This document shows, in pieces, positions 48,972 through 61,920 of a stretch of 64,000 nucleotides of DNA (its first letter is position 1; the number at the start of each line of letters is the position of its first letter). The stretch comes from a virus. The stretch spans positions 29,085 through 93,084 of the IMG/VR virus record IMGVR_UViG_3300027710_000017. One strand, given 5' to 3'. The position numbers and the translations under genes were made by a program. Under the pieces are notes generated by a model, which made no database searches, was not told the DNA's origin, and saw only the letters and a program-made list of their open reading frames with translations.

Positions 48972-49631
48972 ATGAGTGATGTTATTGATTTTAAACCCTT
49001 TGTAACCAAAGACTTTCTACCCCAAGAAATTTACGATGTAGTATATGATGCTGTAAATTCTCAAATTTCTAAGAATCTAGCAGAAGGAAAAGAGGCCTAT
49101 GCTGAACCTTTTGTAAAGGCTGGATCTAATGGATTTATTATCCTTTTTGAGTGTGTTCCAGATAGTGTATATGCCTTTTTAAAAGAAAAGATCTCAGAAG
49201 CTGTTGGATTTGAGATAGCTACTCCTGGATTGCTTTTTGCTAGATATACACACGATTCAGGATATGCCCCTAGATTATTACCACATGCAGATAGGGCTGT
49301 AAAAACTCAAGCCATTACTATGACAGTTGAGCTAGATTCTACTCTAGATTGGGATATTTATATTGAACATGACAGATACCAGCTAGAAAAGAATGATGCA
49401 ATATTCTTCTCTGGATCTCATCAAACACACTTTAGGCCATACCAAAAATTTGAAAAAGATGATTACTACGATATTTTACTGATTCAGACAGCAATCGATT
49501 TACCAGATCAGGATGAGATTACAGAAGAAAACCACTTCCAGTATATGGACAAGAGAGCTGGAGACTTTATCGTAAAGTATAAGGACCTTCTAGAACAGTC
49601 TTTAGATGATAGAGGAGACTTGCGTAATTGA
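48972..49631 (+). CDS. 2OG-Fe(II) oxygenase
   Basis: LPHAD, HQTHFRP. Confidence 0.78.
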   Translation: MSDVIDFKPFVTKDFLPQEIYDVVYDAVNSQISKNLAEGKEAYAEPFVKAGSNGFIILFECVPDSVYAFLKEKISEAVGFEIATPGLLFARYTHDSGYAPRLLPHADRAVKTQAITMTVELDSTLDWDIYIEHDRYQLEKNDAIFFSGSHQTHFRPYQKFEKDDYYDILLIQTAIDLPDQDEITEENHFQYMDKRAGDFIVKYKDLLEQSLDDRGDLRN

Positions 49632-50251
49632 TTAACTTATTAGAGCTAAAGCCTTTTGTTATCAAGAACGTTCTTTCTGAAGAAGAGTATTCCTATGTCT
49701 ATGATTGTGTTAATAAGGGCTTTCCAGAAGAGATCAAACCTGATCTACCCTCAGATAATAGAGAATATCCAGAATACTTGAATGTTCCAGATCTTGGATA
49801 CCTGGCTTATATTAAAGGTTTTAGTGAAGACTTTAAAAAATCTATAAAAAATACTTTAGAAAATAGCTTAGGAATTCCACTATCTTTACCAGATATCCAC
49901 TTTGCCAGATACACTAGCAAAACTGGACATAAGCCAACTTTAAAACCACATTATGACATAGGCGTTAGACATCCATCAGTAACTATCTCTATTCAAATGG
50001 ACACTACTCTGGATTGGGATTTACATGCATACGATGGGTCTGCTACCCTTTCAAAAAATGAAGCTATGGTGTTTTCAGGATCACACCAAGTCCATTGGAG
50101 ACCTCCAAAAGACTTCTCTGAGGATGACTACTTTGACATTATGGTGTGCCAGCTAGCAGTTAGCGATGAGATCTTGTCTGAAGATCATGCAGAATATATG
50201 TCTATTATTAATGCAGCTGCAGGTGCTGACTATTCCGCTAGATATATGTAA
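49628..50251 (+). CDS. 2OG-Fe(II) oxygenase (paralog of upstream gene)
   Basis: KPHYD, HQVHWRP. Confidence 0.78.
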   Translation: MINLLELKPFVIKNVLSEEEYSYVYDCVNKGFPEEIKPDLPSDNREYPEYLNVPDLGYLAYIKGFSEDFKKSIKNTLENSLGIPLSLPDIHFARYTSKTGHKPTLKPHYDIGVRHPSVTISIQMDTTLDWDLHAYDGSATLSKNEAMVFSGSHQVHWRPPKDFSEDDYFDIMVCQLAVSDEILSEDHAEYMSIINAAAGADYSARYM

Positions 50252-50825: not shown

Positions 50826-51035
50826 CTACTTGATAATGCTTAGTTTGTTTAGTGATTCTAGTGTTCCTGCGAACAATTCATCAAAACTGTTTTTAGACTT
50901 TCTAATCTCGCCACACTTGACTAGGTCGTGATTAGCTTTCCACGCTTTAGCATCAAGGTAGTAGCTAACAAAAGTTTCCTGTTCATACTCGCAATTTGAG
51001 CAACGGGTCTTGCGATACATTGTTGTTTTAGTCAT
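50826..51035 (-). CDS. small Zn-binding early protein
   Basis: CSNC...H...C; RBS AGAAAAGGA. Confidence 0.7.
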   Translation of the reverse strand: MTKTTMYRKTRCSNCEYEQETFVSYYLDAKAWKANHDLVKCGEIRKSKNSFDELFAGTLESLNKLSIIK

Positions 51036-51062: not shown

Positions 51063-51084
51063 AACTTAGCATAACCTACCGACA
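51063..51084 (-). promoter_or_regulatory. PafBC/RecA-NDp-type promoter
   Basis: TGTCGG-N10-TAAGTT. Confidence 0.75.
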
Positions 51085-51085
51085 T

Positions 51086-51211
51086 TTATACACGGTAGAC
51101 GCTTACAACATCTAGCATTGAGATACCTTCCTTAGCTAGGTAGAATCCCCAGTTATCTCCTGGGTAAATCTCAACTTTTCCATTTGTAAAGGTAATCTGG
51201 ACTTTTTCCAT
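51086..51211 (-). CDS. 41-aa early protein
   Basis: MEKVQITFTNGK...; RBS AGAAAGGA. Confidence 0.6.
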   Translation of the reverse strand: MEKVQITFTNGKVEIYPGDNWGFYLAKEGISMLDVVSVYRV

Positions 51212-51254
51212 TTTACACTTCCTTTCTATTTATCTAATCTTTCTTTATACCTTT

Positions 51255-51276
51255 AGCCTACCATCAACTACCGACA
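51255..51276 (-). promoter_or_regulatory. PafBC/RecA-NDp-type promoter
   Basis: TGTCGG-N10-TAGGCT. Confidence 0.75.
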
Positions 51277-51372
51277 TTTATGCCACTTTTACAAGGTATT
51301 TCTATACAAACTTTTACCCTGTTTTTTGTAGGTATTTACAGTAATTGCGACACGCCCGACGCCGTGCGCCAC

Positions 51373-51392
51373 TGTGGATAACCTGTGGATAA
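51373..51392 (-). promoter_or_regulatory. two tandem perfect DnaA boxes
   Basis: TTATCCACA x2, 11-bp period. Confidence 0.7.
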
Positions 51393-51438
51393 CTCCGTTA
51401 TGATAATGTTATGAAACGCCCCGATCAGCCTCCCCAAA

Positions 51439-51460
51439 TGTCGGTGGTTTGTGATAGGGT
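51439..51460 (+). promoter_or_regulatory. PafBC/RecA-NDp-type promoter
   Basis: TGTCGG-N10-TAGGGT. Confidence 0.75.
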
Positions 51461-51490
51461 TTTAGTAAGCCAAAAGAAAGGAAACAACAA

Positions 51491-51631
51491 ATGGACAAGA
51501 TGTGTGTTTACTGTGAGAGCGTATTCTCACCTGATACTATTGTTTGCCACAACTGTAATGAGTATGATGGGATGATGCCCCTAGAGTCTGCCATCGACTA
51601 CCTCAACCTTGACCCTAACGACTTCCTATAA
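51491..51631 (+). CDS. 46-aa Zn-ribbon protein
   Basis: CVYC...CHNC; RBS AGAAAGGA. Confidence 0.7.
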   Translation: MDKMCVYCESVFSPDTIVCHNCNEYDGMMPLESAIDYLNLDPNDFL

Positions 51632-51632
51632 A

Positions 51633-51654
51633 TGTCAGAGGGTTATGCTAGGTT
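51633..51654 (+). promoter_or_regulatory. PafBC/RecA-NDp-type promoter
   Basis: TGTCAG-N10-TAGGTT. Confidence 0.72.
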
Positions 51655-51676
51655 GGAACTAACGAAAGGAAATCAA

Positions 51677-51772
51677 ATGATAACACTAACATTCGAAACT
51701 TGGGAAGAGTTTGATAACGCTATCGCTGGGATAGTATTATTGGAAACAGAACTAACAAAGGAGAGCAACTAA
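51677..51772 (+). CDS. 31-aa early protein
   Basis: RBS GAAAGGA; coupled stop/start. Confidence 0.55.
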   Translation: MITLTFETWEEFDNAIAGIVLLETELTKESN

Positions 51773-51906
51773 TGACAGTAGAGGTAATGTTCAAAGATGG
51801 TTCAGCAATTTACCCTAGCTATGACCCAGAGCACCGCAAAAGTGTCCTAGAGTTTTATGCTAATCTTTTTGACAAGGGTGAAATTATTTCTTGGAAGGTA
51901 ATCTAA
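51772..51906 (+). CDS. 44-aa early protein
   Basis: RBS AAGGAG; TAATG coupling. Confidence 0.6.
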   Translation: MTVEVMFKDGSAIYPSYDPEHRKSVLEFYANLFDKGEIISWKVI

Positions 51907-52019
51907 TGATGTTTTATAACGGATTCAACTTGCTAATTGACCTAATCTTGGTTATAGTAGCCTATGAGGTTGGTATGTATTTCGGAACTAAGCGTGTGAT
52001 TGAAAGGAATAGCAAATGA
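51906..52019 (+). CDS. 37-aa membrane peptide
   Basis: Hydrophobic core; TAATG coupling. Confidence 0.55.
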   Translation: MMFYNGFNLLIDLILVIVAYEVGMYFGTKRVIERNSK

Positions 52020-52198
52020 TGACAGAAGAAGAATTTGATGATTGGCTAGATGATGTTTATCCAACTTACCAAATTGCTGGGGTGACTCTTTACCCCTCGC
52101 AAATGCTAAAGAACTGCGACCCTATCGCATACAGAATTGCGTTGTCAGAGTGTGAAGAAAGAGAAGAAGAGTGGGAGGGTTATTTTGACAATAAGTGA
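52016..52198 (+). CDS. small acidic phage protein
   Basis: FDDWLD...SQMLKNCDPIAYR; RBS GAAAGGA. Confidence 0.75.
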   Translation: MMTEEEFDDWLDDVYPTYQIAGVTLYPSQMLKNCDPIAYRIALSECEEREEEWEGYFDNK

Positions 52199-52280
52199 AT
52201 TAGAACAACTGATTTTCCAAATTGACCTAATGCTAACTGAAGATGTTGGCGAATTATTTACAACACCAGAGGAGAACTAA

Positions 52281-52415
52281 ATGGAATTGTTTTTGATTTT
52301 TGTAATCGTTGGTATTGCTATTTTTGTTGGAACTTCTTTAGCTGCTGTTTTGTTTTTGCTACAAGAAAATAACAGACTTGGCGAAGAGCTAGAAAAGAAT
52401 CAGCCACCCTTCTAA
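52281..52415 (+). CDS. 44-aa membrane protein ending in QPPF
   Basis: TM helix; RBS GAGGAG. Confidence 0.65.
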   Translation: MELFLIFVIVGIAIFVGTSLAAVLFLLQENNRLGEELEKNQPPF

Positions 52416-52506
52416 AACGACACGCCCGAGAGGGTGCGCCACATCCTGGGACAGATGTCAAATGTTTACGAAGAGTTTTATGATCGCCCCAAATTCTGTC
52501 CAGAAA

Positions 52507-52528
52507 TGTCAGTGGTTTATGCTAAGAT
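52507..52528 (+). promoter_or_regulatory. PafBC/RecA-NDp-type promoter (leaderless)
   Basis: TGTCAG-N10-TAAGAT with ATG 6 nt downstream. Confidence 0.75.
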
Positions 52529-52534
52529 TATTTT

Positions 52535-52687
52535 ATGTTGAACAGAACTAATGAGGCAAGACGCAAGGCAGAGAGCCAGGCGTTGTTTCAGTCTATGCTA
52601 AAAGCTCCTCACTTGGTTCAGACCCCAAAGAAATACAAAGGTAGCCGTCAGTCTAACAAGACTAAGGCAATAAAGGAGAGCGAATGA
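52535..52687 (+). CDS. 50-aa basic protein
   Basis: MLNRTNEARRK...KKYKGSR; leaderless. Confidence 0.65.
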   Translation: MLNRTNEARRKAESQALFQSMLKAPHLVQTPKKYKGSRQSNKTKAIKESE

Positions 52688-52836
52688 TTCTACAAGGCTT
52701 GATTCACTATGTATGTGAAGACTGTAATAGGTTTGTTCACTCTAACACAGTCTATTCCTATGACCTCAAAAATGTCTGTGGCAGATGTTATGCTGTTCAG
52801 GCAGGCCATCCATCAACAAGAAAGGTAAGTAAATGA
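52684..52836 (+). CDS. 50-aa Zn-finger protein
   Basis: CEDC...CGRC; RBS AAGGAG. Confidence 0.6.
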   Translation: MILQGLIHYVCEDCNRFVHSNTVYSYDLKNVCGRCYAVQAGHPSTRKVSK

Positions 52837-52933
52837 TAGATTGGGAGCCAACAATAAATGAAGAAGCTATCCTAGCCCTAACTGGCGAAGAGGTAGTAGC
52901 AATTATGGAACTACTAGAGAAAGCAGGATACTA

Positions 52934-53200
52934 ATGGGATTCGCAACTGCAGTTGGACTTACAGATACAGACCTAACCCTATCAGACCAAATTAGCATTC
53001 ACTTTAGTAGCAACTGTTATCCACCTATCCCCAAGGTAATGATTCCAGTTGCAGTTGCAGCTATTGACGCTTATTGGGAAGAAGACTATGACAGACTAAT
53101 TACCCTGCCAGAAGGCGTAGAGTTTAGGACAGGTGCAACAAGCGTGTCTGCCTCACAAGCTATTGAGTCTCTTAGGCTTGACGCTTGGTGTATGGAATAG
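52934..53200 (+). CDS. hypothetical early protein
   Basis: HFSSNCYPPIP...ITLPEGV motif. Confidence 0.75.
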   Translation: MGFATAVGLTDTDLTLSDQISIHFSSNCYPPIPKVMIPVAVAAIDAYWEEDYDRLITLPEGVEFRTGATSVSASQAIESLRLDAWCME

Positions 53201-53284
53201 ACTTGACAAGTCCACCGAAAGGTGGGCGCACCAGATCTTGATCCATAAGTCAAATTAAGAAACGTTTAAGAATGCCCTTGAAAA

Positions 53285-53306
53285 TGTCCTAGGGTAATGG
53301 TATAGT
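53285..53306 (+). promoter_or_regulatory. PafBC-type variant promoter with overlapping TTGAAA -35
   Basis: TGTCCT-N10-TATAGT. Confidence 0.65.
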
Positions 53307-53333
53307 TTTACCATACAAAGAAAGCAGGCCCCT

Positions 53334-54050
53334 ATGCTAATTCGTTCCAAAGACCGAAAGGTTACTAATGCAGTATCTCCAAATGGTAAAACGCCAACTA
53401 TTGCGAATACTTTTGGCCTTCCTTCTGGGAAAAGTTATTCCTGTCCTGGAGCAACAAGTGTATGCGAGAAAATCTGTTATGCAGGCAAGCTCGAAAAAGT
53501 ATTCAAGGGAGTAAAAGCTGTACTGTTGACAAACTGGGAGCAACTAAAAGACGCCAATCAACAACAAATGGAAGCGCTTATCTACCAAATGATAGATGAG
53601 TTTGAAAAGGACTGTGATAAAAAGAATGCTAAAAAACTATTTCGTATCCATTGGGACGGTGACTTTTTTAGTGATACTTACACAATGGCTTGGAAGAATG
53701 TAATCCTTGCATTCCCTCAAATTCAGTTCTGGGTATACACGAGGTCAGACTTTGCAGTTCCAATTCTTACTGGTATTGATAACTTAGCGCTTTACTTCTC
53801 TACCGATGACGACAACTGGCAACTGGCCAGTGAATTAAAAAAGACTAACGGTGTGAAGCTTGCTTATCTTGCTAACAACTTTGCAATGGGTAAAGAGCGC
53901 ATGTTGTCTATCACTGTCAAGTCCGCCATCCCATGTCCTGAAAATAATAAAAAGATTCCGCTCATTAGCGAAAAGGGTTCCGCTTGTGTTACCTGTTCGC
54001 AATGTGTCTTTGCTCGTAATGACATCCTGTTCAGTGCAAGTAAAACATAA
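53334..54050 (+). CDS. Gp88-like Cys-cluster (radical-SAM-like) protein
   Basis: SCPGATSVCEKICYA, FRIHWDGDFF, WVYTR, C-terminal CP...CxxCxxC. Confidence 0.8.
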   Translation: MLIRSKDRKVTNAVSPNGKTPTIANTFGLPSGKSYSCPGATSVCEKICYAGKLEKVFKGVKAVLLTNWEQLKDANQQQMEALIYQMIDEFEKDCDKKNAKKLFRIHWDGDFFSDTYTMAWKNVILAFPQIQFWVYTRSDFAVPILTGIDNLALYFSTDDDNWQLASELKKTNGVKLAYLANNFAMGKERMLSITVKSAIPCPENNKKIPLISEKGSACVTCSQCVFARNDILFSASKT

Positions 54051-54075
54051 TCTCATGCTATAGGGGCATGTAAAC

Positions 54076-54140
54076 TGTAGGTCCCTTGTTATATCCTTTC
54101 TTAGGGATCTACACGTCCTGGCCACGACGTCAAACTGGCC
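54076..54140 (+). ncRNA. anti-SD-loop hairpin plus H-type pseudoknot
   Basis: Stem GTAGGTCCCT/AGGGATCTAC with loop ...TCCTTTCT; then ACGTC-CT-GGCCA-C-GACGT-CAAAC-TGGCC. Confidence 0.6.
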
Positions 54141-54232
54141 ACAAAAGCGGCGCACCAGATTTGCCAGGGAAAGTAAAGCTTATGAAGATAACGATTTCCC
54201 CCCCCGAATCGTTATAAAAAGATGGTTGATAA

Positions 54233-54254
54233 TGTCGGTGGTATAGGCTACAAT
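54233..54254 (+). promoter_or_regulatory. PafBC/RecA-NDp-type promoter with TTGATA -35
   Basis: TGTCGG-N10-TACAAT. Confidence 0.78.
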
Positions 54255-54320
54255 GGTGGTATCAACAAAAGTTGGTAATCAAATAGACAAATCCTAGCTC
54301 TGCTAGGTGATAGGAAGCAA

Positions 54321-54473
54321 ATGTCAAACGCAACCCTAACTGTTGGCTCACAGTTCACTACTCTAAAGAGTGGTGTATCAGGCACAATTCAGGAAGTAGT
54401 AGAAAACAAGAACGGCTCTTTCCGAGTCCGTCTTGATGTAAACGGACAGCCACGCTGGACTACTGTAAAGTAA
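54321..54473 (+). CDS. 50-aa SH3-like protein
   Basis: Manual translation MSNATLTVGSQF...RVRLDVNGQPRWTTVK. Confidence 0.7.
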   Translation: MSNATLTVGSQFTTLKSGVSGTIQEVVENKNGSFRVRLDVNGQPRWTTVK

Positions 54474-54552
54474 TCTAGTTAGTGTTAGTGGCGTTAGACT
54501 ACATAAAAGGGTGAATCAGAGTCTATTAGAAATACCCTGCCACTTTCACAAA

Positions 54553-54574
54553 TGTCATACCCCACCCCTATAAT
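54553..54574 (+). promoter_or_regulatory. PafBC-type variant promoter
   Basis: TGTCAT-N10-TATAAT. Confidence 0.65.
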
Positions 54575-54607
54575 AGTAATACCCTAACAAGAAAAGGAAA
54601 ACAAACT

Positions 54608-55051
54608 ATGGCAAGAAGCCTGTCAGTAAAAATCCCAACCGCAAAACTAATCGCAGATGTAGAGCAGTCTATCGCTAAGATAGATACCGCTATTGCTGAG
54701 TATGCTGATAAGCGTAAGCAGTATGAAACAGAAATCAAGCAGTATGACCTAGACATTGTTGCTCACGCTATCAAGGCTATGTCAGACCCAAGTAATGTTG
54801 GAACAGAACACGGCTCTCTAGTTCGTGTATCAAGAGGATACAACGGAAACATTTCTGTTGATTTTGATGTTGAGGCACTTGGACTACCAGCAAAGCCAGT
54901 AGAGCCAGCAAGACCAAATGAGAAAAGTTATTTTGGTCGTGAGTATGCTACACGCAAAGAAATCCTAGAGCGTAATCTTCGTATCCTAAAGATGACAACT
55001 CAAGAGGAGATTTCAGCAAGTTCTTACTCTGCTGTTATTGACCTTATCTAA
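54608..55051 (+). CDS. hypothetical coiled-coil early protein
   Basis: RBS AGAAAAGGA. Confidence 0.8.
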   Translation: MARSLSVKIPTAKLIADVEQSIAKIDTAIAEYADKRKQYETEIKQYDLDIVAHAIKAMSDPSNVGTEHGSLVRVSRGYNGNISVDFDVEALGLPAKPVEPARPNEKSYFGREYATRKEILERNLRILKMTTQEEISASSYSAVIDLI

Positions 55052-55091
55052 CTTAGGGAAAGACCCCTGCCTAGCAGGTATAACGCCCGAA

Positions 55092-55119
55092 GCAACCTAA
55101 GCAAGTTGTAAAACTGCTT
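55092..55119 (+). ncRNA. H-type pseudoknot
   Basis: GCAAC-CT-AAGCA-A-GTTGT-AAAAC-TGCTT. Confidence 0.55.
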
Positions 55120-55249
55120 CCACTCCCCTCCAAAAGCTGAAGGATCTTTGATCCACAAATACTGTGAGGGGAAAAAGTGGGCGCACCGCATTTTCGTTAC
55201 CAAACTGTTATTTATGATGACTAATTATTTTGCCCCGAATCGTTGACAA

Positions 55250-55271
55250 TGTCGGAGGGTAGCCCTATAAT
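55250..55271 (+). promoter_or_regulatory. PafBC/RecA-NDp-type promoter with TTGACA -35
   Basis: TTGACA-A-TGTCGG-N10-TATAAT. Confidence 0.8.
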
Positions 55272-55310
55272 TAGACTATTAGTAATCCAACCCTAAAGAA
55301 AGTAGATAAC

Positions 55311-56321
55311 ATGGCACATTTGCTAGAATCCGTAAACGGAGAAACCGCATTTGCTTCACTCAGAGAGCCAGCTTGGCATGGTCTAGGAACTGTATTCACT
55401 GAGGAAGTTTCAACAGCCGAGATGTTGAAGAAAGCTAAACTAAATAACTGGAATGTTCGCTTGGAAGATGTAGAGATTCCTACTGGCATGGATTCAGACA
55501 AGGGCTACTCTTTCGTAGTTCGTGATAACCCATTCACTAAGGGCAACAAGGACATTCTTGGTGTTGTTGGTGAGCGTTATGTTCCGCTTCAGAATGAGGA
55601 CTTGTTTGATTTTGCTGATAACATTCTAGACGCTGGTGGACGCTGGGAAACCGCTGGTTCCATCAAGGGTGGTCGAGTTGTATTCGGTTCTCTAGCTCTT
55701 GAGCGTGAAACAGTTCTTGACCCTAACGGCGTATCAGATAAGGTAAACAGTTATCTTCTAGTAAACACTAGCCATGACGGCTCTATCGCAATTCAGGCAA
55801 GCATTACACCTGTCCGAGTTGTATGTGCCAACACTCTAAACTTGGCACTTGGTAATCGTGGTCGTGGTGGTTCGGTAAAGCAGTCGTTCAAGATTCGCCA
55901 CACCCAAACTGCTAACGGCAAAGTTCAAGCAGCTCGTGAGGCTCTTGGCTTGGCTAATGCTTACTTAGATGAGTTCGACAAGATGGCAAACGAGATGATT
56001 CAGAATGAAGTTAGCAAGGCTAAGTTTGATGAAATTGTTTTGGCATTGTATCCAAAGCCTGAGAAAGATTCTAAGGGTGCTGTCAAGAAGTGGGAAACTA
56101 AACTAGACATCATCAACGGCATTTATGTTGGACAGTATAACGACACTATTGCTGGAACAGCTTGGGGTGTTGCTAACGCTCTAACTGAAAGACTAGACTG
56201 GTATCGTTCGGCAAGGGGTGGCAACAACGAATCCATTCTTGCTTCCGCTTCTGGGTTTGACCCAATGATAAACGCTGAGAAGAATAGAATCTTCAAGGCA
56301 GTTCAACTGGCAACAGCATAA
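55311..56321 (+). CDS. DUF932 / TIGR03299-family phage protein
   Basis: MAH...PAWHGLG...LQNE...ETAGSIKGG...SHDGS...TPVRVVCANTL...RHT. Confidence 0.9.
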   Translation: MAHLLESVNGETAFASLREPAWHGLGTVFTEEVSTAEMLKKAKLNNWNVRLEDVEIPTGMDSDKGYSFVVRDNPFTKGNKDILGVVGERYVPLQNEDLFDFADNILDAGGRWETAGSIKGGRVVFGSLALERETVLDPNGVSDKVNSYLLVNTSHDGSIAIQASITPVRVVCANTLNLALGNRGRGGSVKQSFKIRHTQTANGKVQAAREALGLANAYLDEFDKMANEMIQNEVSKAKFDEIVLALYPKPEKDSKGAVKKWETKLDIINGIYVGQYNDTIAGTAWGVANALTERLDWYRSARGGNNESILASASGFDPMINAEKNRIFKAVQLATA

Positions 56322-56326
56322 GCAAA

Positions 56327-56353
56327 AGTCCTGGGCATGACTAAAAACTGCCC
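56327..56353 (+). ncRNA. H-type pseudoknot
   Basis: AGTC-CT-GGGCA-T-GACT-AAAAAC-TGCCC. Confidence 0.6.
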
Positions 56354-56446
56354 ATCACCTATACTTGACACAGGATCAAAAACGTGGCGCACCTGGATAA
56401 CGAAACTATAACAAGTTTACGATACAGTTTAAGAATCCCTTGAAAA

Positions 56447-56468
56447 TGTCGGTGGCTACTGGTAAAAT
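56447..56468 (+). promoter_or_regulatory. PafBC/RecA-NDp-type promoter
   Basis: TGTCGG-N10-TAAAAT. Confidence 0.78.
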
Positions 56469-56492
56469 CTAGGTATAAAGAAAGGAATTCAA

Positions 56493-56615
56493 ATGGACGA
56501 GCAAGCAGAAGAAATTCGTGAGGCATTAGCTGAGTACTATGCCAACCCAGAAGACTACACCCTAGAAGACTTCGAAGAAATCTTTCAGGATAGGGACCCA
56601 TTCGAATTTCTATAA
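56493..56615 (+). CDS. 40-aa acidic protein
   Basis: RBS AGAAAGGA. Confidence 0.65.
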   Translation: MDEQAEEIREALAEYYANPEDYTLEDFEEIFQDRDPFEFL

Positions 56616-56637
56616 TGTCGGTGGTTCATGGTAAAAT
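56616..56637 (+). promoter_or_regulatory. PafBC/RecA-NDp-type promoter
   Basis: TGTCGG-N10-TAAAAT. Confidence 0.78.
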
Positions 56638-56661
56638 CCAAATAGACAACGAAAGGAAAAC

Positions 56662-56859
56662 ATGTCGCATTTACTAAATAACATTGGATACGTTTCTTAT
56701 GATGGAAACTATGGAGCAGAAGCGGACGTACTTGTGTTCGATACTGATTCACTTACCCTGCAGCAATGGGAAACCCTAGGTGAGCTAGATGACAACTCTA
56801 GGTATGACTATGTCGAAGCTATTTTTGCAGGTAAAGACCTATCTGAATGGGAGGGCTAA
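56662..56859 (+). CDS. hypothetical early protein
   Basis: RBS GAAAGGA. Confidence 0.7.
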   Translation: MSHLLNNIGYVSYDGNYGAEADVLVFDTDSLTLQQWETLGELDDNSRYDYVEAIFAGKDLSEWEG

Positions 56860-57212
56860 TGTTAGACGTATTGGAAATGGATTACAGGATTGATGAGTAT
56901 ACCAATGAGGCAAAGGGCATTGCTTGGGATACATGTCATAAAATCTATGTACTCATGGACGAGGAGCAAGTAGCGCTTCAAAGAAGTTATGGCTATGGTG
57001 ATGAGAATGACCCAGATAGCCTAATCACAAGTGAGCAGATGACTGGTGATGAAATGAGAAAGCAAGTCATGGACTGGTATCAGAAGTCTTGTGGCCTAAG
57101 ATTTATTTCAGCTGTTTCAACCGACACCAGGTTTGGTGATGACGGCTGGGTTCACATCATTAGTCAGTTTGAAGATACTGATGAAGATGAAGATGAGGAT
57201 GAAGACCTGTAG
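56859..57212 (+). CDS. hypothetical early protein
   Basis: WDTCHKIY...SCGLRFI, acidic tail; TAATG coupling. Confidence 0.75.
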   Translation: MLDVLEMDYRIDEYTNEAKGIAWDTCHKIYVLMDEEQVALQRSYGYGDENDPDSLITSEQMTGDEMRKQVMDWYQKSCGLRFISAVSTDTRFGDDGWVHIISQFEDTDEDEDEDEDL

Positions 57213-57273
57213 CGCATTCCCTTACTTCCTTTCTGGAATGTGCTACCGTCCTAGCTATGACGTAAAACTGGCT
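57211..57273 (+). ncRNA. anti-SD-loop hairpin plus H-type pseudoknot
   Basis: AGCGCATTCC/GGAATGTGCT stem, loop CTTACTTCCTTTCT; CGTC-CT-AGCTA-T-GACG-TAAAAC-TGGCT. Confidence 0.6.
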
Positions 57274-57354
57274 TTCCAGCAGGCGCACCACAATAATGGA
57301 TCAGTGTCAACAGTTTAAGAAGAATTAAGATTACTCCCCGAAACCCCTTGATAA

Positions 57355-57376
57355 TGTCAGTGGGTAGTAGTAAAAT
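57355..57376 (+). promoter_or_regulatory. PafBC/RecA-NDp-type promoter
   Basis: TGTCAG-N10-TAAAAT. Confidence 0.78.
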
Positions 57377-57404
57377 GATACTACCCGAAAGAAAGGAACC
57401 CCCA

Positions 57405-57905
57405 ATGGGAACCAGAAACCTAACAGTAGTAAAGAACAAAGCAGGACAAACCAAGATTGCTCAATACGGACAATGGGACGGATACCCAAGCTATTCAGGT
57501 ATTCAAGCTCTAGAGTTTCTAAGAGATGAAGGCAACCAAGCCTTACTACAAGCTAAGCTAGACCTTGTCCAGTTTGTTGGTGATGAGGAAGTAGATACGC
57601 TGTATAAGCAGTATGAGTCTACTGATTGGGAGAATAAGGAATTCCTAAACGCATACCCTGGCCTACACAGAGATACTGGTATTGACATCCTAAAGGTAGT
57701 TGCCAATGCTACTGCCACTATCAAGAGTGTAGATAATACAGAGTTTGCTAAGGATGAACTATTTTGTGAGGGTGTCTATGAGGTAGACTTCTCTACTAAT
57801 AAGTTTATTACTGTCTATGACAACAAGGTTGTTGAGTATGACTTGGATTCCTTGCCTAGTGATTCGGATTACCTAGCAGCGTTTGAGGTGGAACAGCTTG
57901 TTTGA
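57405..57905 (+). CDS. conserved phage protein (MGTR...QWDGYP family)
   Basis: MGTRNL...AQYGQWDGYPS; RBS AGAAAGGA. Confidence 0.8.
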   Translation: MGTRNLTVVKNKAGQTKIAQYGQWDGYPSYSGIQALEFLRDEGNQALLQAKLDLVQFVGDEEVDTLYKQYESTDWENKEFLNAYPGLHRDTGIDILKVVANATATIKSVDNTEFAKDELFCEGVYEVDFSTNKFITVYDNKVVEYDLDSLPSDSDYLAAFEVEQLV

Positions 57906-58073
57906 TAATCTAGATACCAAGTATGCCACAGGAAACATCGCAAAGGATGTTGAGTTTATCAAAGATAACCTTAGTATTGATGACAAAGAGTTCTTTAGAA
58001 GGGCTATGGCTAACATAATGTCTGAGGGTAATGCTAGAATTGACCTACTTACTGGAGAGGAACTGGAACAGCT

Positions 58074-58268
58074 ATGATGAAACTAACAAGCACAGACCTA
58101 AAGACTTGGCAGGTAGAGTATTCTGCAGCCTACTGGGTAGAAGCTACAAGTGAAGATGAAGCTATTGAAAAGGCTATGGAACAACACGCTGATTTGCCTG
58201 ACGGTAGCTGGGAAGCAATGATTGACCCCTATGATAGCAACAACTTCAATACCCTAGGAGAAAAGTAA
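58074..58268 (+). CDS. small acidic protein (VEA.SE.EA motif)
   Basis: Motif shared with 58673 ORF. Confidence 0.65.
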   Translation: MMKLTSTDLKTWQVEYSAAYWVEATSEDEAIEKAMEQHADLPDGSWEAMIDPYDSNNFNTLGEK

Positions 58269-58462
58269 TGGCAATGGCAAAGATAAGTATTGTCCTAGAG
58301 TATGACCTAGAAAACCATTTTCAAGAATTAGCGTATAAGCACCTAAAGACCGATACTATTATTGACGAACTAGAAGATAATGTGTATGAGGATTTACTAG
58401 ACCTAATGCGTGGAGATAGATTGCGTTCTTGGTCTTACTATGAGATAGTAGATGGGAAATAA
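58268..58462 (+). CDS. hypothetical early protein
   Basis: RBS AGGAG, coupled. Confidence 0.65.
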   Translation: MAMAKISIVLEYDLENHFQELAYKHLKTDTIIDELEDNVYEDLLDLMRGDRLRSWSYYEIVDGK

Positions 58463-58609
58463 TGGAACACGAATGCGTCCCACTTCTTGAAGGAGATGCC
58501 TGGTGTCTATGTGGAAAGGACCTGGACACCTAACCAGATCCCCCGAAAGGGGTGCGCCGATTCTTTTATAGATAATCTTATTAAACATAAAAATGTAATT
58601 AAGAAGCTC

Positions 58610-58638
58610 TTGACTTTTTCCCCAGATTGTGGGACAAT
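58610..58638 (+). promoter_or_regulatory. sigma70/SigA-type promoter
   Basis: TTGACT-N17-GACAAT with TGTGG. Confidence 0.55.
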
Positions 58639-58672
58639 TGAGTATCAAAGCCCCAACCCCATAGGAGATAAA

Positions 58673-58849
58673 TTGCCTTTATACAAAGTTCAAAGAGAAT
58701 ACACCAACTGGGAAGAGATTACAGTTGAAGCAGAATCAGAAGCGGAAGCCCTAGACCTCATGGAAGATGAAAGTATGTGGGAATACGCAACTGATGCCAG
58801 TACGTACAACTACACTGGTGAGACTTGGATTGGAGACTACGATGAGTAA
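58673..58849 (+). CDS. small acidic protein (VEAESEAEA)
   Basis: TTG start after RBS AGGAGA. Confidence 0.65.
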   Translation: MPLYKVQREYTNWEEITVEAESEAEALDLMEDESMWEYATDASTYNYTGETWIGDYDE

Positions 58850-58942
58850 ACACATGCACTACTTTAGTTATGGAGCCTGCATTCATTGTGGCAAGGTAGT
58901 CAATAAAGGATTGGGCGTAGACCTATTAAGAGGGAAGAGAGT

Positions 58943-59176
58943 ATGAGCCAGATTTATGTAGACAAGAAGCCTAGTGTAAAGGATACTACTTGGACCAGGA
59001 TCTTTCATTACAATACCGCCCAGGTTATGGAATCGGATCGCTACTATGACTTCTATAAGGCTGTAGTTGAAGGAGAGCGACCAAAGTATTTCTTTGGAGA
59101 ATCTGCATGGATGAATTGCCAACGATATGTAGTTGACAAAATTGGCATGCAGGGCTATAATGTATTTAGAAGATAA
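58943..59176 (+). CDS. hypothetical protein
   Basis: ORF; KYFFGESAW motif. Confidence 0.65.
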   Translation: MSQIYVDKKPSVKDTTWTRIFHYNTAQVMESDRYYDFYKAVVEGERPKYFFGESAWMNCQRYVVDKIGMQGYNVFRR

Positions 59177-59197
59177 CCCCGATAGAAAGCAGACCCC

Positions 59198-59740
59198 ATG
59201 CATGTATTACAATGGATAGCTACAGAAGCTGATAATAAAGATGAGGCCTATCGTAGAGTAGAAGATACTCTGCAGGAAATGCTAGGCGACTTTGAATTAC
59301 CAACCCTTACTTGGTATGACTGGTTTGTCGTAGGTGGCGGACGTTGGAATACTAAGGATGATGAAAGCGCTACTGCTGCCTACACTGAAGGTAAAACTAA
59401 TCTAATTATCTCCTATGATGAAAGTCCAGAACCTTTTCTAACTGGTATCCTAAGAGCATTGGAAGACCGTAAAGCTGAGTTTGATAACTATGCCAAAGAC
59501 GTAGACAGCAGTGTAATAGATAAGATAATCAAAGACTATAACCCTAAAGAGTTTGACTTCCCTGCATTTCAGTCTCTTTATGTTATCAAGAAGGTTATTG
59601 ACATGGCCTATGGCACATGGGATTTCAATGCATACTTTTATGACATGGTCAATGATACAACTACCCCAAAGTATTTGTATGAATCTATTGACAAAGGCAA
59701 CAAAAACTGGTATCTTGTACCTGTAGACTTTCATTTCTAA
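59198..59740 (+). CDS. conserved phage protein
   Basis: MH...WYDWFVVGGGRW...LVPVDFHF. Confidence 0.8.
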   Translation: MHVLQWIATEADNKDEAYRRVEDTLQEMLGDFELPTLTWYDWFVVGGGRWNTKDDESATAAYTEGKTNLIISYDESPEPFLTGILRALEDRKAEFDNYAKDVDSSVIDKIIKDYNPKEFDFPAFQSLYVIKKVIDMAYGTWDFNAYFYDMVNDTTTPKYLYESIDKGNKNWYLVPVDFHF

Positions 59741-59752
59741 GAGAGGACCCCA

Positions 59753-60160
59753 ATGCTAAAGTTTCCAGAAGTAAAGTATGTTGAGCTAACTTGGAAAGAG
59801 TTTGAGCAACAGTTTAGACCTATCAAAAATCACTTCCGTAAAGACCCAGACGAGATTATGTTTGAGACCTATGGTGAGGAGCTAGACTTTGTTGTATCTA
59901 AAGTAGAGGACAATGTTGTTTGGACCTATGCTGATGGTGATTACTGTTCCTATGTTAGTGGAGGCTATCACTATGTAAACAGGATTGGCTATTACATTAC
60001 CGAGGTCCCTATGGAGAAAGACACAGAGTATCAGATTATCGTAAGCACCGAAGAAGAGTGTGAGTGTTACAACGAGGAAGGTTATGAAGATGGAGAAATG
60101 GGCAGAGCCGATTGTGAAAAATGCGAGGGGTATGGACTTGTCACTAACTACGTCGACTAG
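59753..60160 (+). CDS. hypothetical protein with C-terminal Zn finger
   Basis: GYHYVNRIGYYITE; CEKCEGYG. Confidence 0.75.
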   Translation: MLKFPEVKYVELTWKEFEQQFRPIKNHFRKDPDEIMFETYGEELDFVVSKVEDNVVWTYADGDYCSYVSGGYHYVNRIGYYITEVPMEKDTEYQIIVSTEEECECYNEEGYEDGEMGRADCEKCEGYGLVTNYVD

Positions 60161-60497
60161 AAACCAAAACAAAGATAAGACGCATATTGTCTATGACCTA
60201 AACATCTACCAGCTAGAGCAGTTGGACTCAGATGGTGAGTACAGACATTTTGGCCCATGGTATATACATGTCTATGAATATGAAAACAGTAACATCGAAG
60301 AAGTTACAGCTCCAATAGAGTTAACTCAGGAGGAGTACGATAGTCTTATTGCTAATGACCCATACTTTGACGAGCCAGACGTATGGTATGGCCTAGAAGG
60401 ATTTCTATTTGAAAAGTGGGACCAGCTGGACGATCGTTTAAAGATGGTATTTGAATGTCTACCCAAGTACAAGGAAGATGCATTAGTAGATAACTAA
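60138..60497 (+). CDS. hypothetical acidic protein
   Basis: 3' part of track ORF 60060..60497; start uncertain. Confidence 0.55.
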   Translation: MSLTTSTRNQNKDKTHIVYDLNIYQLEQLDSDGEYRHFGPWYIHVYEYENSNIEEVTAPIELTQEEYDSLIANDPYFDEPDVWYGLEGFLFEKWDQLDDRLKMVFECLPKYKEDALVDN

Positions 60498-60599
60498 ATA
60501 AGGATTGATACGTCGAGCCTAGCTCCGTATCATGGATAACTGGTTAGGGGTAGCCAGGGTATCCGAACGGGGTGTCAGGACTCTTTCCTACTTTCAGTC

Positions 60600-60628
60600 T
60601 TGACACCCCAACTAATTTTTGATACAAT
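60600..60628 (+). promoter_or_regulatory. sigma70/SigA-type promoter
   Basis: TTGACA-N17-TACAAT, with the -35 lying in the 3' arm of a 14-bp hairpin. Confidence 0.7.
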
Positions 60629-60647
60629 GTCATAGGAGAATAATACA

Positions 60648-60857
60648 ATGAGGCACTTGAAACCAACGAAAGAACTAAGGGTAGCTGTAAAAATGTCAGA
60701 CCTTGTCAATGACCTAACGCTAGACCTAGACCAAGTTGGAACATACATAGCAACTAACAACGCTACCACTTACAGACGAATTATGGAAGTTGCTGATTCG
60801 GCTAGGTATGAAAAAGAGCAAATGTGGAAGGACAATAATGACGACAACCTTTTCTAA
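60648..60857 (+). CDS. hypothetical protein
   Basis: RBS AGGAG. Confidence 0.7.
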   Translation: MRHLKPTKELRVAVKMSDLVNDLTLDLDQVGTYIATNNATTYRRIMEVADSARYEKEQMWKDNNDDNLF

Positions 60858-61113
60858 CAAGTGTGAAATACTTGGAGAACTTTGGATGGACTACAGAGAA
60901 GACGAAGAGTTCCAAGACTTTGTGGAATACAATGACTTGGGATTGCCATTAGCATATATGGTTGCTAGTGGAATCATAGCTACACCAACAGAGAAGGCAG
61001 AGGACATTGTAAACGAAACCTTTGACCTATTCCTAGGCTCTATGAGTATCAAAGACATTGGCTTCGAAACTTTGCCAGATGTGTTTGATGTAGCAGCGAA
61101 CCCACCAGAGTAA
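60838..61113 (+). CDS. hypothetical protein
   Basis: KCEILGELW...YNDLGLPLAY. Confidence 0.75.
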   Translation: MTTTFSNKCEILGELWMDYREDEEFQDFVEYNDLGLPLAYMVASGIIATPTEKAEDIVNETFDLFLGSMSIKDIGFETLPDVFDVAANPPE

Positions 61114-61226
61114 AACCAGGGATCTGGCTTCGGCCAGAAACTTGGCGCACCACATCTTTGTCCATTTGTCAAGGGTATTACGATAACAATTTGATTACGA
61201 TGGATCATATTTTTCCCCAGAATATA

Positions 61227-61745: not shown

Positions 61746-61774
61746 TTGACATTATAAAGGTTTGAGTGTATAAT
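61746..61774 (+). promoter_or_regulatory. perfect consensus promoter
   Basis: TTGACA-N17-TATAAT. Confidence 0.7.
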
Positions 61775-61879: not shown

Positions 61880-61920
61880 TGTGGATAACTCTGTGTATAA
61901 CTATCTAAAACTGTGTATAA
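61880..61920 (-). promoter_or_regulatory. three DnaA boxes
   Basis: TTATCCACA (61880), TTATACACA (61892, 61912). Confidence 0.65.

Follow-up and report, generated by a model that had tools for sequence, protein, structure and literature searches.

The stretch analysed here, a window of 64,000 nucleotides, comprises bases 29085-93084 of a single 93,084-bp viral contig of IMG/VR (G000), and the element in question is a repeated promoter-like sequence, TGTC-N12-TAnnnT, which lies in front of small open reading frames (ORFs) at 51.0-60.7 kb of the window and resembles the promoters served by the actinobacterial DNA-damage activator PafBC. The contig was estimated by CheckV to be 82% complete and has a G+C content (GC) of about 40%. 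The pre-window part of the genome encodes DnaE, RecA, a primase, class Ib NrdE/NrdF and five tRNAs. Virion genes of siphovirus type (portal, protease, capsid, fibres and a tape measure of 2973 amino acids) occupy the minus strand between position 1 and about 48 kb. The block of small genes that carries the element includes a GP88-family gene and a DUF932 gene, and about 87% of its presumed early ORFs belong to no known family.

Promoter-like sequences in the small-gene block

Twelve copies of the element had been listed in a preliminary description of this DNA, and all of them were recovered at the positions and on the strands given there (Table 1). Their build was also as described: in each of the 12, exactly 10 nt separate the TGTCNN hexamer from TAnnnT and AA stands in front, while the hexamer ends in GG in seven copies, in AG in three, in CT at 53285 and in AT at 54553. 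The latter two, both without GG, are the weak sites among those listed. Three further copies were found, two of them (52773 and 58019) within a small ORF or at its end and a weak one at 60628; TGTC is present in these three as well as in all 12 listed sites, and RG comes next in 10 of the 12. Two sites (51084 and 51276) point leftward and the rest rightward from a divergent control region of 160 bp.

The five sites said to possess a TTGAnA hexamer 17 bp upstream of the -10 box (53285, 54233, 55250, 56447 and 57355) do possess it, and nothing resembling a -35 was seen at the remaining seven of the 12. The distance from the -10 box to the start codon ranged from 6 to 66 nt, mostly with a GAAAGGA-type ribosome site in between, in agreement with the claim that each copy sits just upstream of a ribosome site or a start codon. 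The ATG noted 6 nt past the -10 box of the 52507 site was confirmed, and the mRNA from this promoter is probably leaderless; leaderless mRNA is a common feature of actinobacteria. Layouts of this kind, with the ATG 6-7 nt past the -10 box, recur in the phage family (window 52528-52537; GP88 orthologues in L008, L042, L051, L077 and others).

The number of copies was compared with chance expectation. The loose pattern TGTC-N12-TAnnnT occurred 26 times in the window against 10.5 expected (2.5-fold), and none of 100 shuffled sequences reached 26; the strict pattern TGTCNGNGG-N7-TAnnnT occurred 10 times against 0.11 expected. When the whole genome of 93,084 bp was scanned, sites with the extended consensus were found only at 51.0-60.7 kb of the window, and none of the loose matches lying elsewhere carried it.

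Conservation of the element across the phage family

A scan of IMG/VR with AATGTCGGTGG-N4-TGnTAnnnT retrieved at least 120 viral stretches, nearly all of 35-45% GC and with several co-oriented copies. A homologous gene block was detected by tblastn among the 120 stretches listed, with GP88 in 48, DUF932 in 53 and other small ORFs in up to 71 of them. In the 1.17 Mb of these stretches the pattern TGTC-N12-TAnnnT was counted 1127 times on the dominant strand and 129 times on the other, against 185 matches of a reversed control motif on both strands together. Five complete relatives (107-125 kb) gave the same picture, with 6-17 copies each in one main block, 55 of 57 on one strand and not a single match of the control.

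To derive a consensus, 910 unique sites were collected from the 120 listed stretches with only TGTC, the N12 distance and TAnnnT fixed. The free positions then read aAATGTCRGtgg-N4-TGnTAnaaT, in which AA at -2/-1 had frequencies of 0.79 and 0.74, R at +4 of 0.88, G at +5 of 0.90, T at +6 of 0.66, GG at +7/+8 of about 0.6 and TG at +13/+14 of 0.64 and 0.73. No -35 consensus emerged, the information being close to zero from -40 to -5 with 447 as well as with 910 unique sites. The spacer between hexamer and -10 box was found to be rigid: a spacing of N10 occurred 939 times among the listed stretches, against 3-24 times for each of N6-9, N11, N13 and N14. The 101 counts at N12 probably echo -10 boxes of the TATA type.

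The element was also followed in front of individual genes. Among unique upstream regions it is kept in 31 of 35 from GP88 orthologues and in 34 of 46 from DUF932 orthologues, and at least nine of the 12 DUF932 exceptions have TGTCRG at the same distance from a -10 box of the form GATAAT or CATAAT. These upstream regions retain the element down to about 50% protein identity, with diverged flanks. Inheritance of the motif from cultured relatives was considered and rejected, since neither phage of this kind showed enrichment (19 loose matches against 24 of the control in Jay2Jay, one against two in Circinus).

Match to the PafBC promoter class

If transcription starts 7 nt past the -10 box, the first T of the phage TGTC falls at -28 and the element occupies -28 to -23. 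The older consensus of the RecA-NDp promoters, tTGTCRgtg-8nt-TAnnnT, agrees with the phage sites in R at +4 and in GTG at +5 to +7. The in vivo motif of PafBC has been determined as tGTCgg(N10)tA(N3)T; its 5' part, at -23 to -28, is the '-26 element' read by the helix-turn-helix of PafB, in which R46 and R50 contact the two guanines of the conserved GTC triplet, while a -35 is lacking and the -10 box is read by the housekeeping sigma factor SigA (Muller et al., 2021, PMC8635444). The consensus given in the preliminary description, TGTCGG-N10-TAnnnT with a -26 element, is correct when held against this work. The same study found that a fragment of single-stranded DNA (ssDNA) raised the retention of PafBC (PMC8635444), and ssDNA binding has since been named as its trigger (Schilling et al., 2025, PMC11804915).

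LexA boxes were searched for as well, and none was found in the window beyond chance expectation, so that the phage promoters would answer to PafBC alone. As judged from motif, position and spacing, their reading as PafBC-type promoters is well supported.

Phage lifestyle and candidate hosts

The portal protein is 47% identical to that of Streptomyces phages of the BE cluster (Stanwilliamsviridae) and the DUF932 protein 56-57%; tblastn matches to the GP88-family protein, with identities reaching about 56%, come almost exclusively from Mycobacterium and Streptomyces phages. These similarities indicate that G000 is a distant relative of the Streptomyces BE-type phages. A near-identity DNA search with 20 kb of the window against cultured phages gave no match, and hence no close cultured relative. 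Searches for tyrosine and serine integrases were negative in G000 and in six near-complete relatives, which fits a virulent (lytic) lifestyle. The phage is probably virulent, of roughly 110 kb and 40% GC, and infects actinobacteria.

WhiB, a hallmark of actinobacteria and their phages, was encoded in 17 of 49 motif-bearing records and in six of the eight of these that are at least 90% complete; G000, a contig of 82% completeness, gave only a sub-threshold match. WhiB, together with the relatives of GP88, DUF932 and the portal in Mycobacterium and Streptomyces phages, identifies the phage group as actinobacterial. An attempt to assign the host through WhiB relatives in genome collections was abandoned, because it returned only phage contigs mis-binned into unrelated freshwater metagenome-assembled genomes (MAGs; Rimov, Mendota and others). 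This mis-binning points to lakes, which is to say to an environment and not to a host. Contigs of the group (L131-L140, up to 110 kb) were seen in MAGs labelled Chitinophagaceae, Methylococcus, Polynucleobacter, Bifidobacterium, Aquiluna, Beijerinckiaceae, Bacteroidia, cyanobacterium and Omnitrophota, an evident mis-binning. The preliminary description had turned to M. smegmatis, but the host is not a Mycobacterium, and a low-GC freshwater actinobacterium is more likely.

The class of candidate hosts was entered through the Aquiluna-labelled MAG. WYL-domain proteins were present in 299 of 301 sampled genomes of this class, many of them of 1.3-1.5 Mb (the tally includes seven unpublished genomes, G057, G072, G077, G080, G086, G291 and G329, which enter into none of the other results). 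Three complete genomes of 1.3 Mb (G248, G293 and G321) were inspected, and two adjacent WYL genes were found in each, along with a third, weaker match in an ORF of about 740 amino acids. In G248, tatC comes next after the pair, as in the pafB-pafC-tat order of mycobacteria. The second gene of this pair encodes HTH_PafC, WYL and WCX domains, and the first aligns to the 331-residue chain of PDB 7P5X (E = 8e-34) with 'RMFERDK' and its R46/R50 kept; the chain was taken to be PafB because its residues 46 and 50 are the arginines named in PMC8635444.

In the candidate hosts the motif TGTC(A/G)GTGG-N7-TAnnnT was observed in front of recA, a dnaE2-type polymerase operon, a LysM gene and carD, and a LexA box lies beside the -10 box at the first three. 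The motif is rare there (5-11 loose matches per genome) and therefore not a general housekeeping promoter. The preliminary description had called for a check of the predicted host for pafBC; in these 1.3-Mb actinobacteria, which are candidate hosts, pafB-pafC-tatC is present, and the same motif stands at recA. For at least one plausible group of hosts, the extended phage consensus is thus that of the PafBC regulon.

Proposed mechanism and alternative readings

We consider it fairly probable that the phage sites are promoters of the PafBC-dependent class (RecA-NDp, -26 element) which an actinobacterial phage has placed at the disposal of host RNA polymerase with SigA and of host PafBC, working by sigma adaptation. 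Host RNA polymerase with its housekeeping sigma factor would read the TAnnnT -10 box, often aided by the extended TGn. Host PafBC, activated by ssDNA, would bind TGTCRG at -28 to -23 via the PafB helix-turn-helix and bridge to sigma region 4, standing in for the missing -35 ('sigma adaptation'); binding and activation at these sites are predicted from the likeness of the sites. The phage would in this way tie a block of 7-10 kb, made up of small genes with a probable early role in host takeover (GP88, DUF932 and ORFans), to the LexA-independent damage alarm of its host. Ends or nicks of the entering DNA, resection after restriction, phage replication intermediates and breakdown of host DNA are candidate sources of the ssDNA. 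The extended -10 box and an occasional -35 may provide a basal level that PafBC would boost. In the preliminary description, basal as well as induced transcription was credited to the five -35 copies; those hexamers exist, but the basal component need not be limited to the five sites, and it is plausible at most sites because 64 to 73% of the family copies carry the extended -10 TGn.

The small-gene block itself is probably early, to judge from its small ORFan cassettes with promoters of their own and from homologues located up to 2.7 kb from the end of BE phage genomes. In the Streptomyces BE-cluster genomes that hold the best relatives of the DUF932 protein, the gene lies within this distance of the left end, and each record includes another copy. 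Homologous genes are also found in the early right arm of L5-like mycobacteriophages. A location in direct terminal repeats was discarded as proof of earliness, for the block overlaps an apparent repeat in G036 and is internal in G025. In G036 (124,540 bp) four promoter copies at 464-2656 repeat at 116487-118679, at an offset of 116,023 bp, which suggests a terminal repeat of about 8.5 kb overlapping the promoter block; as the block of G025 is internal, this repeat may be either genuine or an assembly wrap-around.

Several observations weigh against the dependence on host PafBC. The extended -10 TGn occurs in about two thirds of the phage copies (0.64, 0.73) as compared with two of seven inspected host sites, and the 5' flank is AA in the phage copies whereas it is mostly T at the host sites. 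With a -35 at five of the 12 listed sites and TGn being common, SigA alone could fire these promoters. The cultured relatives Jay2Jay and Circinus are without the motif, and the 1.3-Mb genomes are candidates only. It is also possible that a novel phage DNA-binding protein is hidden among the family-less early ORFs. Lastly, perfect or near-perfect canonical promoters without the -26 element at 59133, 60600 and 61746 give the block two promoter classes, and these three could be the true immediate-early class, from which a phage factor may be expressed first.

The last two points lead to the main rival, in which a phage-encoded activator, made as an immediate-early protein from canonical promoters, binds TGTCRG in the -26 element and bridges to sigma, much as MotA/AsiA does in T4, so that the block would be a PafBC-independent middle class. 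T4 middle promoters are indeed designed in this way, a good -10 being paired with a box at about -26 to -30 in place of the -35, and PafBC promoters have themselves been likened to them (Muller et al., 2021, PMC8635444); canonical TTGACA-17-TA(T/C)AAT promoters without the element share the block, and most of the early ORFs are family-less. We nevertheless regard such an activator as unlikely. Sequence, position and spacing of the phage box are those of the host PafBC box, with TGTCRGTGG also before recA of the candidate hosts, and an unrelated protein would have had to converge on these 6 to 9 bases, equally far from the -10 box, which is improbable. An activator of this kind had been put forward in the preliminary description as a way to refute its reading and was accordingly sought: G000 and five to six complete relatives (seven phage genomes in all) yielded no WYL, PafC-type helix-turn-helix (HTH_PafC) or sigma-70 region 2, and the searches for a PafBC-like protein with WYL and HTH_PafC were negative in G000 and five complete relatives. 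A T7-type single-subunit RNA polymerase was not found either, which is a weak negative as the family was matched in no control genome.

Extended -10 promoters can function without a -35; about two thirds of the copies have TGn, and a minority have a -35. The sites might then be served by SigA only, with TGTCRGTGG acting as the operator of an early-gene repressor from phage or host, or as a decoy by which PafBC is sequestered and the host damage response weakened; 10 to 17 sites per genome, multiplied by many replicating copies, would titrate a regulator of low abundance. We give this reading a small chance. An operator does not need a rigid 10-nt distance to the -10 box over hundreds of diverged promoters, and about one third of the copies, having neither TGn nor a -35, still keep the element; the decoy, for its part, is compatible with activation. 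That some other host factor, be it a different WYL or helix-turn-helix regulator or an alternative sigma factor, serves the sites in an unsampled host lineage seems very unlikely to us. The third WYL ORF of the 1.3-Mb genomes would allow for it, but the sites have a SigA-type -10 box, the motif of the candidate hosts stands at recA, dnaE2 and a chiZ-like gene, all classical targets of PafBC, and the GTC-reading arginines of PafB are conserved.

The dependence of the sites on host PafBC can also be put in a more far-reaching form, in which PafBC is the ignition key of an abundant family of freshwater actinophages: the entering DNA, through its ends, nicks or cleavage by restriction, would be the trigger, the early block would have no other effective route to expression, the phage programme would be set off by the damage and defence signal of the host, and hosts devoid of pafBC would be resistant. 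We find this version rather doubtful.

Other features of the block

The coordinates of the predicted promoters and of the two annotated genes are collected in Table 1.

Table 1. Predicted promoters and other features of the small-gene block (window coordinates)
Feature	Position	Strand	Context
PafBC-type promoter TGTCGG-N10-TAAGTT, extended -10 TGc	51063..51084	-	leftward small ORF 50826-51035; start codon 27 nt past -10
PafBC-type promoter TGTCGG-N10-TAGGCT	51255..51276	-	leftward ORF 51086-51211
Divergent control region between leftward and rightward promoter sets	51277..51438		tandem TTATCCACA x2 at 51373-51392; GACACGCC / GGCGCAC G+C-rich element
PafBC-type promoter TGTCGGTGG, TGa-TAGGGT	51439..51460	+	before ORF 51491-51631
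PafBC-type promoter TGTCAGAGG	51633..51654	+	begins at stop codon of upstream ORF; before ORF at 51677
PafBC-type promoter TGTCAGTGG	52507..52528	+	ATG at 52535
Extra copy TGTCTGTGG	52773..52794	+	within ORF 52684-52836; identical sequence in relatives G002 and G036
PafBC-type promoter, deviant TGTCCT, with TTGAAA -35 at 17 bp	53285..53306	+	before GP88-family gene
GP88-family gene (PF17338)	53334..54050	+	tblastn
PafBC-type promoter TGTCGGTGG with TTGATA -35	54233..54254	+	before ORF 54321-54473
Weak copy TGTCAT (no GG), perfect TATAAT, TTCACA at 18 bp	54553..54574	+	before ORF 54608-55051
PafBC-type element TGTCGGAGG within perfect TTGACA-17-TATAAT promoter	55250..55271	+	before DUF932 gene
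DUF932 gene (PF06067)	55311..56321	+	best relatives in Streptomyces BE-cluster phages
PafBC-type promoter TGTCGGTGG, TGg-TAAAAT, with TTGAAA -35	56447..56468	+	
PafBC-type promoter TGTCGGTGG, TGg-TAAAAT, no -35	56616..56637	+	directly after stop codon of upstream ORF
PafBC-type promoter TGTCAGTGG with TTGATA -35	57355..57376	+	before ORF 57405-57905
Extra copy TGTCTGAGG, TGc-TAGAAT	58019..58040	+	before ORF 58074-58268
Canonical TTGACA-17-TATAAT promoter without -26 element	59133..59161	+	
Canonical TTGACA-17-TACAAT promoter	60600..60649	+	overlaps weak TGTCAT-N10-TACAAT copy at 60628
Canonical TTGACA-17-TATAAT promoter without -26 element	61746..61774	+	

Apart from the promoters, other short repeats were noted. 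The sequence GGCGCACC has eight exact copies, all in the early block (52433-61151), on the plus strand at 53225, 54149, 55180, 56386, 57282 and 61144 and on the minus strand at 52433 and 58551. Of the plus-strand copies, five are followed at 60-84 nt by a PafBC-type promoter, and TTGACA precedes those at 53225 and 56386. As a promoter partner throughout the family GGCGCACC was rejected, for it is restricted to close relatives, with 18 copies on the promoter strand and six on the other in 106 loci (about four per strand expected) and a variable distance of 60-84 nt. One idea is that it serves as a nick or recognition site. The DnaA-box-like TTATCCACA occurs also at 61880-61888 of the window and is among the commonest 8-mers up to 150 nt upstream of promoters family-wide. 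The commonest 8-mers upstream of promoters in L002-L121 were GGCGTGTCG and its reverse complement CGACACGCC (often TTACGACACGCC), with counts of 183 and 113, present in the window at 51349 and 52419; possible roles are as arms of hairpins at junctions or as additional TGTCG half-sites. At 48972-50251 a pair of adjacent paralogous ORFs (219 and 207 amino acids), with a weak match to PHROG 2954 (annotated as ferrochelatase), converges on the leftward early genes.

Novelty and comparison with known systems

The promoter class itself is an established one. Its adoption on such a scale by a virulent phage family is, to our knowledge, new. A full-text search of the available literature that combined PafBC or RecA-NDp with phage, mycobacteriophage, actinophage and phage promoters returned no description of such phage promoters. 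Rafique et al. (2025), a work on pafBC and mycobacteriophage resistance, is cited in PMC12848934. If the dependence on host PafBC is true, it would be the first case found of a virulent phage family that uses a host WYL-domain damage activator as the positive switch for a gene block, and 'sigma adaptation' would extend from host stress genes to viral takeover. PafBC would then be predicted to be a phage dependency factor, which would give hosts a reason to modulate it, and the phages would tie in with the emerging picture of WYL regulators at the interface of phage and defence. The hundreds of natural promoter variants would be a resource for dissecting site recognition by PafBC, and because the DNA-reading residues of PafB are conserved, the reading can be tested in M. 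smegmatis, Corynebacterium and Streptomyces.

The closest counterparts are the PafBC-dependent host promoters themselves (RecA-NDp, recA P1-type), with which the phage sites share TGTCRG at -28 to -23, exactly 10 nt to a SigA-type TAnnnT, the lack of a -35 consensus and the invariant GTC triplet. They differ in being on a phage, where 12 to 15 of them stand within about 10 kb before ORFans instead of repair genes, and in having no accompanying LexA box. In gene content the counterpart is the small-gene region of BE-cluster phages (Stanwilliamsviridae), which holds the same DUF932 and GP88 homologues among many small ORFs, each with a promoter and a terminator; the virion and replication modules of these phages are related to those of G000, and their genomes carry direct terminal repeats of about 11 kb. 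Intergenic regions of Jay2Jay, however, contain a CCGGACA element and TTGTA-type -35s instead of the TGTC motif. At the genome end of this phage (L001, 1-10.5 kb) the intergenic order is a G+C-rich hairpin, CCGGACA, a TTGTA-type -35 and an extended -10 box, TGTAGACT, so that the cultured relatives show another conserved layout of early promoters.

Two better-known systems offer a functional parallel. In the middle promoters of T4 (MotA box and AsiA, 'sigma appropriation') a box likewise replaces the -35 and an adaptor links the DNA to sigma region 4, but that adaptor is phage-encoded and remodels sigma region 4, whereas in the present phages the search for an adaptor was negative and the box matches the site of a host activator. 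The SOS-coupled switches of temperate phages, with repressors and antirepressors under LexA/RecA control, also tie phage expression to the DNA-damage signal of the host. Those switches operate by inactivation of a repressor for prophage induction, while the promoters described here would place the whole early block of an integrase-less phage under positive control by a WYL activator.

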